Assembly (NCBI GenBank): GCA_026397045.1
Contig: JAPLVO010000012.1
Location: 10,654 to 74,653, forward strand
DNA length: 64,000 nt
Reading direction: 5' to 3'
DNA from: Patescibacteria group bacterium
GTDB taxonomy: Bacteria > Patescibacteriota > Saccharimonadia > CAILAD01 > BJGX01
Shown: positions 5,856 to 9,031 of the stretch, piece after piece
Numbering within the stretch: the first letter of the stretch is position 1
Layout of the letters: the number at the start of each line of letters is the position of its first letter
Position numbers and translations under genes: made by a program
Notes under the pieces: generated by a model
The model's database searches: none
What the model saw: the letters and a program-made list of their open reading frames with translations, nothing else
What the model was told of the DNA's origin: nothing

Positions 5856-6130
5856 TTGAATATCAGCAGCTATTGAAGTATAATTTAATCGTTGAAATAG
5901 CAATAAAAAGCGTCTTGCCAATTCCACCGGCAATAAAGTGGTTATCAGCCACATAGCTACAGAAAGAACCGCTCAAAACTGTTTTGAAGCCTAGTAGAGT
6001 CTGTCGCAGTCACCTGCGTTGTTAAAGTGAAATTAAGAGCCACACCCTATGGAAGCAGGATGGTACCGTCTCGAGTCATTCGAGATTCCTGCATAGTCTA
6101 TGGGGTTTTGTTATAAATAAGGAGCTCAAA
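5856..6130 (+). promoter_or_regulatory. Promoter plus a long leader upstream of ileS, containing a candidate Ile-specific T-box riboswitch
   Basis: TTGAAT (5856-5861), a 17-nt spacer and TATAAT (5879-5884) are followed by a leader of about 240 nt. An ATC-A triplet at 5944-5947 sits in a loop-like context. A short hairpin CGCAG/CTGCG lies at 6005-6018. An antiterminator-shaped element at 6055-6092 consists of helix GCAGGA/TCCTGC enclosing a 7-nt bulge UGGUACC and an inner helix GUCUCG/CGAGAU. It fits the T-box consensus AGGGUGGNACCGCG in 11 of 14 positions. Confidence 0.4.
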
Positions 6131-9031
6131 ATGAAAAAACTAGCCAGCTATAATCAAAAAAATATCGAGCACAGCATTCTAGATTTCTGGAACAAAAATG
6201 ATATTTTTGAAAAATCACTTGAAAAAACAAAAGGCGGAGAAAGATTTAGCTTTTACGATGGGCCACCTTTTGCAAACGGCCTTCCTCATTTTGGGCATAG
6301 CTTGGTCACTAGTATCAAAGATTCAATAGGTCGCTATCAAACCATGCGTGGTCGTTATGTGGAGCGCCAAAATGGCTGGGATTGTCATGGGCTACCAGTT
6401 GAGTTTGCTATCGAGAAGCAATTTGGAGTATCGGGTAAACAGCAAATTACAGAGCTGGGAATTGAAAAATTCAATCAAGCCTGCCGCGACTCCGTTTTCA
6501 CTTACAAAAAAGACTGGGAACAGTTTTTTGAGCGCATGGGTCGCTGGTCAGACACCAAAAACGCCTATGCCACAATAGACACTAGCTATACCGAATCAGT
6601 ATGGTGGGTGATGTCGCAAATTCACAAAAAAGGCCTACTCTACAAGGGCTACAAGTGTATGCCTTACTGCCCAAGATGCGCCACGCCACTTAGTAATTTT
6701 GAGGTAAATGAGGGCTATAAAGATGATGTAGAAGACCCCAGCCTGTATGTTAAGTTTAAGCTCAAGGGTGAAGATGTCAGTTTGATTGCATGGACAACAA
6801 CCCCATGGAGCCTTCCTGGTAATGCCGCCCTTGCAGTTAACCAAGATGCTGAATATGTAAAGCTTCAGCTTAGTGATGACTCTGGCAATACTGAACAAGT
6901 GATTGTCGCCAAAAACAGAGTAGAAGCCCTCAACAGTGAAAGCTATCAAGTGATAGATCAGTTTTTGGGCAAAGAGCTGGTAGGAAAATCATATTTGCCT
7001 GTTTTTGAGCTTGAAGATTTAGCGCCCTCAGAAAATCTCTACAAGATTTGGTCTGCAGACTTTGTTAGCATAGAAGACGGTACCGGTATTTTGCATGTGG
7101 CTCCAGCTTTTGGTGAAGATGATCTTAGCTTGTCTGTTGAAAAGCAAATACCCGTTCTGCAAACCGTTAGTGCCGAAGGTAAAATAAAACCGGGCACTGG
7201 GCTAGCAGAAGTAGATGGTAAGTTTTTCAAGGGGGCAGATAAGATTATAATAGCCCACCTCACAGAACTTGGGCTAGTTTACGGCGCTGAAACATTTAAG
7301 CATACTTATCCTTTTTGCTATCGTTGTGACACGCCGCTACTATACTACGCAATTGACACTTGGTTTGTGTCGGTTTCAAAAATAAAAGACCAGCTAGCCG
7401 AGTCAGCCAAAGATATTACCTGGCACCCAGATCATATTAAAGACGGCCGATTCGGTAAATGGCTAGAAGGAGCTCGGGATTGGGCAGTGAGCCGTAACCG
7501 ATACTGGGGTGCACCAATGCCAATCTGGGTAAATACCCAAGACGAATCTGACTATCTAGTTATAGAGAGTATTGAGCAGCTCAAATCTCTGGCCGTGGGT
7601 GATCCAAAACTCACTGATTTGCACCGACCCTTCATAGACGATGTAATTATCGAAAAAGAAGGCAAAACTTATAAGCGCATAGAAGAAGTGATAGATTGCT
7701 GGTTTGAATCTGGCTCAATGCCGTACGCCAAAGGCCACTATCCTTTTGAGAATGCTGATCAATTTGGACAGTCATTTGGGGCCGACTACATAGGTGAAGG
7801 CCTAGACCAAACCCGCCTGTGGTTTTATGTCTTGCATGTAATTTCTACGATCGTGTCAGATAAGCCAGCCTACAAAAATGTTTTGGTAAATGGCATGATT
7901 ATGGCAGCAGACGGCAGAAAGTTATCAAAGAGCCTCAAGAACTATCCACCTATTGAAGATGTACTAGATGACGAGGGAGCCGACAGCCTACGCTTTTATC
8001 TGCTCTCTAGCGATCCAGCCATGTCTGGAGACTACATGCGCTTTGATAGGGCTGGGCTTAAGGATGTTCAGCGTAATTTATTTATGACAATCAACAATAG
8101 CGTGTCTTTTTTGGGAATGTACGCAGAAATTGACGGCTGGAAACCAAGCTCACTGGGCACACCGCAAAAACTCACCAACCCTCTAGACATCTGGCTAGTT
8201 GAGATGGTCAAGCAGGCATCTAGTATTGCTACAAAATCTGCCGACAGCTTTGAGATATCTAAGGCCACCTGGCAGGTATATGAGCTAACTCAGGAGCTTT
8301 CTAATTGGTACATTCGCCGCAGCAGAAGGCGCTTCTGGAAAAGTGAAGATGATAGCGATAAGAAAGACGCTTATCGCACTCTACATTGGGCACTGGTAAG
8401 CATTTGCCAAATGTTAGCACCCTGGTCGCCGTTTATTAGCGACTATTACTATAAGTACCTGACAGATGGTATGCAAGACGCCGAAGAGTCGGTGCATTTG
8501 AGTAAATGGCCTAGCTTTGATCAGGCTGATCAGTCAGTACTTGCCAGTATGGTGAGTGTGCGGCAAGCTGTAAACGACGGATTGGCCGAAAGAGCCAAGG
8601 CTGGCATAAAGGTTCGCCAGCCACTTGCTAGCGCAGTAATAAACTCACCAAACAGCATAAGTAAAGACCTTGAGCAAATAATCGCCGAAGAGCTGAACAC
8701 TAAAAAGATTGTTGTAAAAAGCGCTGAGGAACTTTCGGTGGTCTTGGACACAAATATTACTCAAACCCTCAAAAATGAAGGCATTGCTAGGGATATTATT
8801 CGCAACATACAGCAGGCCCGCAAAGATGCAGGCTTACAGATAGAAAATCGTATTAAATTAAGTCTTTTTAGCCCATCTGGAGGACTCAATATGGCTATAA
8901 ATGAGTTCACTAATATCATTTCAAAAGAGACCCTTTCTGTGGAGTTTTATGCCACCCCGAAGGCTTACGGCTATACCAAAACAGCCATAGTAGATGGCCA
9001 GGAATTGATAATTGAACTAGAAGCTAAATGA
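6131..9031 (+). CDS. ileS: Isoleucyl-tRNA synthetase
   Basis: PPFANGLPHFGHSL (HIGH region) and KLSKSLKN (KMSKS), with a CP1 editing domain. 966 aa. Confidence 0.9.
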   Translation: MKKLASYNQKNIEHSILDFWNKNDIFEKSLEKTKGGERFSFYDGPPFANGLPHFGHSLVTSIKDSIGRYQTMRGRYVERQNGWDCHGLPVEFAIEKQFGVSGKQQITELGIEKFNQACRDSVFTYKKDWEQFFERMGRWSDTKNAYATIDTSYTESVWWVMSQIHKKGLLYKGYKCMPYCPRCATPLSNFEVNEGYKDDVEDPSLYVKFKLKGEDVSLIAWTTTPWSLPGNAALAVNQDAEYVKLQLSDDSGNTEQVIVAKNRVEALNSESYQVIDQFLGKELVGKSYLPVFELEDLAPSENLYKIWSADFVSIEDGTGILHVAPAFGEDDLSLSVEKQIPVLQTVSAEGKIKPGTGLAEVDGKFFKGADKIIIAHLTELGLVYGAETFKHTYPFCYRCDTPLLYYAIDTWFVSVSKIKDQLAESAKDITWHPDHIKDGRFGKWLEGARDWAVSRNRYWGAPMPIWVNTQDESDYLVIESIEQLKSLAVGDPKLTDLHRPFIDDVIIEKEGKTYKRIEEVIDCWFESGSMPYAKGHYPFENADQFGQSFGADYIGEGLDQTRLWFYVLHVISTIVSDKPAYKNVLVNGMIMAADGRKLSKSLKNYPPIEDVLDDEGADSLRFYLLSSDPAMSGDYMRFDRAGLKDVQRNLFMTINNSVSFLGMYAEIDGWKPSSLGTPQKLTNPLDIWLVEMVKQASSIATKSADSFEISKATWQVYELTQELSNWYIRRSRRRFWKSEDDSDKKDAYRTLHWALVSICQMLAPWSPFISDYYYKYLTDGMQDAEESVHLSKWPSFDQADQSVLASMVSVRQAVNDGLAERAKAGIKVRQPLASAVINSPNSISKDLEQIIAEELNTKKIVVKSAEELSVVLDTNITQTLKNEGIARDIIRNIQQARKDAGLQIENRIKLSLFSPSGGLNMAINEFTNIISKETLSVEFYATPKAYGYTKTAIVDGQELIIELEAK

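Follow-up and report, generated by a model that had tools for sequence, protein, structure and literature searches.

Does the leader of an isoleucyl-tRNA synthetase gene from the Patescibacteria contain a T-box riboswitch that reads the charging of tRNA-Ile, and, if so, by what route would it act on the gene? The question arises just upstream of ileS in a 64,000-nucleotide stretch of DNA from a Patescibacteria group bacterium (GenBank assembly GCA_026397045.1, contig JAPLVO010000012.1, positions 10,654 to 74,653 of the forward strand; hereafter the window), where a first-pass annotation made from the sequence alone had proposed an isoleucine T-box and had remarked that one would be unusual in such a lineage. 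Each sequence feature named there was confirmed at the position given, with one hairpin mislabeled. We agree that a T-box in Saccharibacteria or Patescibacteria is unusual, and an architecture shared and covarying among related leaders supports the assignment. Our reading is that window positions 5909-6112 form a T-box that responds to tRNA-Ile charging and controls ileS by transcription termination through competition for stem III, to which we give a probability of roughly 0.7. The parts of this reading differ in strength: that the leader is a T-box is virtually certain; a transcriptional output is likely, with termination itself predicted from sequence and modeled folds; and capture of stem III as the switching logic is a proposal that we favor slightly over even odds. 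All features given below lie on the forward strand unless stated otherwise.

The heart of the element is the T-box core at 6055-6092, in which helix A1 (GCAGGA 6055-6060 with UCCUGC 6087-6092) flanks the bulge UGGUACC (6061-6067); the inner helix, A2 (GUCUCGA 6068-6074 with UCGAGAU 6080-6086), has the wobble pair G6068-U6086 as its closing pair on the bulge side. The first-pass annotation had described this antiterminator-like geometry and had suggested a comparison with related ileS leaders, and that comparison bore it out, well above chance expectation. We assembled 49 sequences, consisting of the window leader and 48 relatives from genomes and metagenomes, most of them leaders of Saccharibacteria ileS. 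The bulge was found upstream of ileS in 30 of approximately 35 Saccharimonadia loci, as UGGUACC and once as UGGCACC, and a strict pattern scan detected the bulge-and-helix geometry once per locus. The 6-bp helix flanking the bulge occurs as GCAGGA/UCCUGC, GUCAGG/CCUGAC, GCCGGA/UCCGGC, UCUGGA/UCCAGA, GUUGGA/UCCAAC, ACCGGA/UCCGGU and GCAGGG/CCCUGC, and each bulge-bearing locus also contains a 4-bp hairpin with the 7-nt loop NNAUCRN, approximately 100-185 nt 5' of the bulge. No T-box was present in the approximately 400 nt upstream of ileS in loci L010, L022, L060 and L034 (labeled Bdellovibrionales); since some IleS loci labeled Saccharibacteria or CPR (Candidate Phyla Radiation) thus lack it, the element is widespread in the group though not universal.

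Covariation supports the fold as a whole. Given a plain MAFFT alignment of 26 leaders and no further guidance, RNAalifold predicted stem I, two helices of stem II, A1 and A2, and 23 of the 25 pairs in this structure showed compensatory changes. Altogether 95.2% of alignment cells were paired, compared with 32-44% when pairing partners were slid by 1-3 columns, and the covariation score of 0.789 was matched by none of 500 column shuffles (0.29). Across all 49 sequences, 95.0% of cells were paired and 24 of 25 pairs were compensatory. Stem I (compensatory changes at 4/4 pairs, 99.5% of cells paired) and A1 (5/6 pairs, 99.3%) were nearly always intact in the same set, while all six pairs of A2 covaried, giving 11 of 12 pairs for A1 and A2 together with 95-99% of cells paired; stem II contributed all five pairs of its lower helix and all four of its upper helix. 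The columns that are invariant among the 26 leaders, namely AUC, the strands AGA and UAGA, the CG that opens stem IIA, AAG, the A before A1 and UGG.ACC, are exactly the functional nucleotides of a T-box. With these 26 leaders as its seed, a covariance model (R1) matched the window at a single site, with 141.9 bits, and also identified six non-seed genome leaders at 75-134 bits and, after a pattern scan of metagenomes, 16 further leaders at 66-138 bits. Firmicutes class I T-boxes scored 12 bits with R1, through the T-box core alone.

The decoding half of the leader is built around an ultrashort stem I, which in all members is a 4-bp hairpin, with no long stem I, internal specifier loop or distal platform for the tRNA elbow. 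In the window it consists of GUGG (5938-5941), the loop UUAUCAG and CCAC (5949-5952), and its helix appears in the set as GUGG/CCAC, CUGG/CCAG, UCGG/CCGA, ACGG/CCGU, GCGG/CCGC, GUAG/CUAC and GCAG/CUGC. The loop presents the isoleucine triplet AUC at 5944-5946 followed by the purine A5947, as the first-pass annotation had noted in naming AUC-A as the specifier. This triplet also did not vary across the 31 Saccharimonadia leaders inspected (the window and 30 others); the base 3' of it is a purine in most leaders, with U in L123, C in L151 and G in L140 and L021. Stem I rests on a 3-bp base helix of AGC (5909-5911) with GCU (5956-5958), the latter corresponding to the ...GGAGCU consensus that RF00230, the Rfam T-box model, has at the 3' base of its stem I. 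Covariation in this base helix was read by eye because a length-variable hairpin puts its 5' strand out of register in both MAFFT and covariance-model alignments; the variants found by inspection were AGC/GCU, UGC/GCA, GGC/GUC, UCC/GGA, AUCC/GGAU (L021), UACG/CGUA (L027), GACCU/AGGUC (L025) and AGUGC/GCACU (L005).

That length-variable hairpin, P0, spans 5915-5933 (UUGCC 5915-5919, loop AAUUCCACC, GGCAA 5929-5933) and lies as an insertion between stem I and its base helix, which turns the base of stem I into a three-way junction. Hairpins of unrelated sequence occupy this site in approximately 28 of 32 Saccharimonadia leaders, and P0 is absent from three metagenomic comparators, the actinobacterial-like L094 and the pair L088 and L114. 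A terminator scanner also made a minus-strand call at 5933-5915 (TTGCCGGTGGAATTGGCAA plus a T-rich tail), which we rejected as an artefact formed by the reverse complement of P0 and the complement of AAAAAGC; the position is not the end of any converging gene.

Stem II follows at 5959-6004, with a lower helix of ACAGA (5959-5963) and UCUGU (6000-6004), an upper helix and loop at 5970-5991, and between them the strands AAGAAC (5964-5969) and UAGUAGAG (5992-5999), which align to the GAA.../AGUA S-turn of RF00230. Invariance in the S-turn falls on AGA 5965-5967 and UAGA 5995-5998. The next hairpin, CGCAG-UCAC-CUGCG at 6005-6018, had been taken for a stem III-like element; the hairpin is real, but RF00230 and the family alignments both identify it as stem IIA, in the stem IIA/B part of the model, rather than stem III. 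It is retained among relatives with differing stems (CGU/ACG, CGG/CCG, CGUC/GACG and CGGG/CCCG). Its loop UCAC (6010-6013) has a candidate stem IIB pseudoknot partner in the linker, GUGA at 6027-6030, and complementarity between loop and linker amounts to 3-7 bp in most leaders and to at least 4 bp in 21 of 32.

The 5' module of the discriminator, at 6035-6054, comprises AAGAG (6035-6039), stem III (CCAC-ACCCU-AUGG, 6040-6052) and AA (6053-6054). Its AAG (6035-6037) and A6054 do not vary among the 26 leaders, while the sequences of stem III vary widely. The RRRxG-stem III-AA motif has been assigned, together with a closing G-U pair, to the sensing of aminoacylation (PMC7583486). At the closing pair of A2, 23 of the 49 sequences have G-U and 20 have G-C. 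As a separate observation, stem III is often of the form (Y)CCA...UGG(A), and its CCA is kept even in L021, L025 and L030, where the hairpin itself is missing. A stem of this kind resembles a tRNA 3' end paired to UGG and could be a self-inhibitory mimic or a trace of shared ancestry.

How such a module is coupled to ileS was less apparent. The first-pass annotation had not clearly identified a canonical terminator or a sequestrator of the Shine-Dalgarno (SD) sequence. This holds for the canonical kind: neither a terminator nor a sequestrator built from the 3' strands of A1 and A2 was found in the window, and nothing after 6092 is complementary to CGAGAUUCCUGC. A non-canonical, terminator-like hairpin does exist, however. 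In minimum free energy (MFE) folds, CCCUAUGGA at 6045-6053, which consists of the stem III loop, its 3' strand and the first linker A, forms a lower stem with UCUAUGGGG at 6097-6105, which is followed directly by the U-run UUUUGUU (6106-6112). Simple terminator scanning misses this arrangement because of its 8-nt loop limit. The strand that precedes the U-run pairs with the stem III region at -13.0 kcal/mol and with the 3' strands of A2 and A1 at only -4.1 kcal/mol, and just 13 nt lie between the 3' end of A1 and the U-run.

A hairpin with a U-run was present in all 31 genome leaders analyzed (the window and 30 others), and in the 30 with an SD found, the distance from the first nucleotide of the U-run to the SD is 9-26 nt; in the window it is 13 nt, and the SD lies outside the terminator. 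The window and 17 of the genome leaders share what we term the type 1 platform, in which the segment between A1 and the U-run is 9-16 nt long and hence too short to form a hairpin of its own. It pairs instead with nucleotides just 5' of A1, namely one strand of stem III together with its loop and, in many cases, the first linker A. The mean energy of this duplex was -11.9 kcal/mol, compared with -6.0 +/- 0.44 when 3' strands were shuffled and -6.3 when they were exchanged between leaders, where strong cross-pairs appeared only among close relatives. In MFE folds extending up to the U-run, all 18 type 1 leaders kept A1 at 6/6 pairs while their last nucleotides paired with the stem III region, and adding the 3' strand gained a mean of 8.8 kcal/mol. 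The same behavior was seen in 13 further leaders (12 metagenomic leaders and L023), with L120 ambiguous.

The lower stem also carries compensatory changes, as in UCCAUC/GAUGGA, UCCAGC/GCUGGA (L151) and UCCAC/GUGGA (L095, L120 and L025), or in CUUCUGG/CCAGAAG of L016 compared with CUUUUGG/CCAAAAG of L035. These changes occur within sub-lineages, between which the lower-stem sequences are wholly different, and in L001, L002 and L024 pairing is kept through one-sided changes (CUAUAGGG, CUGUAGGG). As controls, the Firmicutes ileS leaders L041, L042 and L055 showed a textbook terminator with the 3' strands of A2 and A1 as its 5' strand, and the same script called L088 and L114 canonical, with A1 retaining 0/6 pairs in the fold predicted for termination (the OFF fold).

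From these features we propose the following mechanism. The anticodon GAU of tRNA-Ile would pair with AUC in the 7-nt terminal loop of the 5938-5952 hairpin, with stem II and its S-turn (5959-6004) and stem IIA (6005-6018) supporting decoding. The tRNA 3' end, ACCA, would pair with UGGU at 6061-6064 between A1 and A2, and stem III at 6040-6052 with its flanking purines AAGAG and AA would complete the discriminator. Bacterial tRNA-Ile(GAU) carries A73, which is compatible with UGGU. When uncharged tRNA-Ile is bound, stem III and the purine string would be locked onto the stack of tRNA, A1 and A2, as in published structures. So held, stem III could not be captured by 6097-6105 before the polymerase has passed the U-run, and transcription would read through into ileS. 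With charged tRNA, or none, stem III would be unlatched, the more stable lower stem would form and transcription would stop. In the predicted OFF hairpin, 6097-6105 pairs with 6045-6053 beneath an upper part in which A1 and A2 stay intact, and UUUUGUU marks the end of the hairpin. Transcripts that are read through may be subject to a secondary, translational effect.

Several observations weigh against this reading. Stem III is only 3-4 bp long in the window and forms no hairpin in the relatives L021, L025 and L030, so stem III competition cannot be the whole story. A second arrangement, which we term the type 2 platform, has a stand-alone, nearly invariant CCUGAC-ACCGC...GCGGUGU-UUUU hairpin directly next to A1, with an overlap of just 1-3 nt; it is found in 13 genome leaders (L003-L009, L011, L013, L026, L029, L031 and L032) and in the metagenomic L084, and the overlap shows one compensatory change, GGC...GCC in L008 and L013. 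(In some type 2 MFE folds, the 5' strand of stem III, CCAC, pairs with the GUGG of the T-box bulge.) Terminator-like sites show only mild enrichment in this genome, at 28 compared with 17.3 +/- 4.8 expected. The candidate pseudoknot does not stand out from shuffled linkers (mean 3.97 bp versus 3.37 bp, not significant). A tRNA-Ile gene was sought in the window and the 48 related loci, and none was found. The K-turn is degenerate in the window, with UAAA...AUA in place of the UGA...GA seen in about half of the relatives, and P0 (5915-5933) occupies the position of its bulge. Finally, RF00230 gave the window leader 20.2 bits, with E=0.019 in a 451-nt search, compared with a gathering score of 93.

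The last two points bear on checks that the first-pass annotation had named, a match to RF00230 and a stem I with a K-turn and specifier loop around AUC. What we found is a match below the gathering score and a stem I that does fold around AUC, as a 4-bp hairpin with the triplet in its terminal loop, without an internal specifier loop. Both checks presuppose a class I T-box, and the T-box reading survives this mixed result on the stronger, comparative evidence. The RF00230 alignment runs over the full length of the model (positions 1-219, onto 5924-6093), with 76 positions of distal stem I replaced by 7 nt in the window, which accounts for the low score. No T-box match of RF00230 appeared in the whole-window scan by E value, none of 12 Saccharibacteria loci passed at the gathering score, and two other leaders with a short stem I scored 31.8 bits (L094) and 29.2 bits (L088). 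Firmicutes ileS leaders used as a control reached 94-125 bits; the ileS locus of Anaerostipes hominis (L037) had no match at the gathering score, unlike three other Firmicutes ileS loci. By the curated criterion, which describes class I T-boxes, the window leader is thus not a member of RF00230, while by every testable sequence or structure criterion other than those specific to class I it belongs to the T-box superfamily.

One further point against termination leads to the strongest of the alternatives, namely that the leader is a translational T-box resembling the ultrashort-stem-I (US) class of actinobacterial ileS, in which GAGAUUCCU (6081-6089) pairs with the SD region AGGAGCUC and the hairpin and U-run are incidental. 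Descriptions of the US class are confined to translational control of actinobacterial ileS, in which the 3' strand of A1 sequesters the SD, and the stem I design of the window matches this class. Pairing of the A2/A1 3' strand with the SD reaches -8.4 kcal/mol in the window and -10.5 kcal/mol in L001, compared with approximately -3.5 to -3.9 kcal/mol in shuffles. A clear SD sequestrator is moreover seen in L094, a high-GC metagenomic leader that served as our actinobacterial-like comparator (its taxonomic label is provisional), whose IleS is 40% identical to that of the window and which scores 36 bits with R1; its stem I is CCGG-CCAUCA-CCGG and its SD pairs with the A1 3' strand. Yet L094 has no U-run, whereas every Saccharibacteria-type leader examined has a hairpin and U-run between the discriminator and the SD, with a lower stem that covaries. 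SD complementarity across the family is weak, with a mean of -5.1 kcal/mol, and is largely what any A1 strand containing CCU would give. In addition, A1 would not be free to pair with the SD because it stays paired in the predicted OFF fold. We consider a purely translational switch unlikely.

A decayed or non-regulatory T-box relic, whose hairpin and U-run serve as a constitutive attenuator or stabilizer, appears very improbable from the sequences at hand. The 13 type 2 genome leaders, with a terminator that hardly overlaps the antiterminator, and the minimal or absent stem III of some leaders would fit such decay. Against it, the nucleotides that contact the tRNA are all invariant, and nearly every helix carries compensatory changes among leaders whose IleS proteins diverge to 50-60% identity, a combination that points to continuing selection on the whole fold. 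A strong constitutive terminator ahead of an essential, single-copy synthetase gene would also be deleterious. Least probable of all is a canonical class I transcriptional T-box with an overlooked terminator, in which the 3' strands of A1 and A2 form the terminator 5' half, because, for all that RF00230 aligns over its full length and the closest IleS relatives outside the CPR are Clostridia with class I T-boxes on ileS, the window has only 7 nt for the distal stem I, no downstream complement to CGAGAUUCCUGC and a far stronger pre-U-run duplex with the stem III region, and the family model and RF00230 barely recognize each other's members (12 and 20 bits, respectively).

Termination controlled through stem III is the reading that we carry into the gene context. 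The regulated gene, ileS (6131-9031), encodes an isoleucyl-tRNA synthetase of 966 aa with the Pfam domains tRNA-synt_1, Anticodon_1 and DUF5915; its start codon lies at 6131-6133 and its SD, AAGGAG, at 6119-6124. The order of features around it is ftsA, ftsZ, nrdR, an open reading frame (ORF) of 94 aa, the leader, ileS, ftsW/rodA and an SNase-like gene. The protein is 92% identical to one from a Candidatus Saccharibacteria metagenome-assembled genome and 51-74% identical to approximately 35 other Saccharimonadia or Patescibacteria entries. Beyond the Patescibacteria, the nearest proteins come from Clostridia and Bacilli (39-43% identity). The closest outside the CPR are those of Clostridia/Anaerostipes (41-43%), and Clostridia ileS genes bear class I T-boxes; DUF5915 forms the C-terminal domain of the window IleS. 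The synthetase gene may trace to an old transfer.

In three relatives, an ORF stands between the T-box and ileS, encoding an AAA_33 kinase-like protein of 176 aa in L023 (at 2469-2999 of that locus), an OmdA/YdeI-like protein in L140 and a membrane-like protein of approximately 55 aa in L121, which indicates that the leader can control a small operon. Upstream of the leader, a sigma-70-type promoter matches 10 of 12 consensus positions (TTGAAT 5856-5861, a 17-nt spacer and TATAAT 5879-5884). The first-pass annotation had placed it approximately 245 nt before ileS; from the end of the -10 box to the ATG at 6131 the distance is 247 nt, with transcription predicted to start at approximately 5891. 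TATAAT or TAAAAT boxes occur in relatives at a similar distance 5' of the stem I base. Promoter-like sites are not enriched in the window (45 observed versus 40 expected), so the function of this one is suggested by its position. The 64-kb window contains no tRNA genes and no Rfam families at the gathering score, and the sub-threshold Rfam matches in the whole-window scan by E value look like chance.

If correct, this reading places a tRNA-sensing riboswitch in the CPR, whose members are episymbionts with tiny genomes and almost no known regulatory RNA. It would imply that the organisms carrying it monitor the charging of tRNA-Ile, probably as a readout of isoleucine derived from their hosts. 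It would also break the textbook pairing of short stem I with translational control and long stem I with transcriptional control. That correlation underlies kinetic arguments for contact with the tRNA elbow, and an ultrashort branch that acts co-transcriptionally would contradict the need for a long stem I in fast tRNA capture. A terminator that encloses A1 and A2 and competes with stem III would, in turn, provide a natural experiment on the recent structural proposal in which the discriminator is latched by stem III and its purines. Such leaders have escaped annotation because RF00230 gives them only 20-32 bits and because the class II model of TBDB was searched only in Actinobacteria; R1 finds them cleanly. 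The core phyla of TBDB are Firmicutes, Actinobacteria, Chloroflexi and Deinococcus-Thermus. In literature searched as full text, we found no T-box paper on Saccharibacteria, Patescibacteria, the candidate phyla radiation or TM7, which is weak evidence of novelty since most subscription papers lie outside that coverage.

Among known systems, the closest are the US, or class II, T-boxes of actinobacterial ileS, as in Mycobacterium smegmatis and M. tuberculosis (structure 6UFG), which combine a short stem I helix with a specifier in its terminal loop (Sherwood, Grundy & Henkin 2015, as summarized in PMC7583486 and bioRxiv 10.1101/2023.02.28.530422); all ultrashort T-boxes have been stated to regulate ileS. 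The window leader shares with them the ileS target, AUC, the terminal-loop specifier and the lack of an elbow platform, as well as the stem II S-turn, stem IIA, the RRRxG-stem III-AA motif and the UGGN ACC bulge between A1 and A2, and ileS is the sole T-box-regulated gene seen in both Actinobacteria and Saccharibacteria. The two differ in that the window and its relatives have a hairpin and U-run before a free SD rather than SD sequestration, in that the alternative helix of the window captures stem III rather than the A1/A2 3' strands, in the insertion of P0, which L094 lacks, and in belonging to the Patescibacteria rather than the Actinobacteria.

Class I T-boxes (RF00230), such as those of Bacillus subtilis tyrS and the Firmicutes ileS leaders L041, L042 and L055, have in common with the window the bulge, A1 and A2, the stem III purine motif, the S-turn and the AGC/GCU base helix, and further share tRNA-dependent transcription attenuation as the likely output, with a terminator that exceeds the ON fold in stability (mean ddG -8.8 kcal/mol). 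The class I terminator takes its 5' strand from the 3' strands of A1 and A2 (PMC7583486), whereas in the window A1 and A2 would remain paired inside the terminator, and the window lacks the long stem I, internal specifier loop and distal double T-loop platform. A third combination appears in two short-stem-I T-boxes on metagenomic contigs, L088 (4308-4491, minus strand) and L114 (878-1060, minus strand), which lie upstream not of ileS but of genes for two NUDIX hydrolases, an inositol monophosphatase and a GNAT family protein. Like the window leader, they have an ultrashort stem I (GGAG-UGAUCAG-CUCU) with AUC in its loop, an S-turn, the same discriminator and a hairpin with a U-run; unlike it, they have no P0, and their terminator is canonical (AGUUCCAAU with AUUGGAGCU), so that A1 does not persist in the OFF fold. 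With them, a short stem I and a transcription terminator are found together for a second time. We tentatively suggest, at somewhat less than even odds, that an undescribed branch of T-boxes, with an ultrashort stem I and co-transcriptional control, exists in Saccharibacteria and in one or more further uncultured lineages. In the type seen in the window, the decision would fall between a lock of stem III and purines and capture of stem III, rather than by melting of A1 and A2, and P0 may provide the tRNA or folding contact that distal stem I usually makes. The kind of T-box is itself known; what is new relative to the actinobacterial ultrashort ileS class is the output, the topology of the switch, the inserted hairpin and the phylum.

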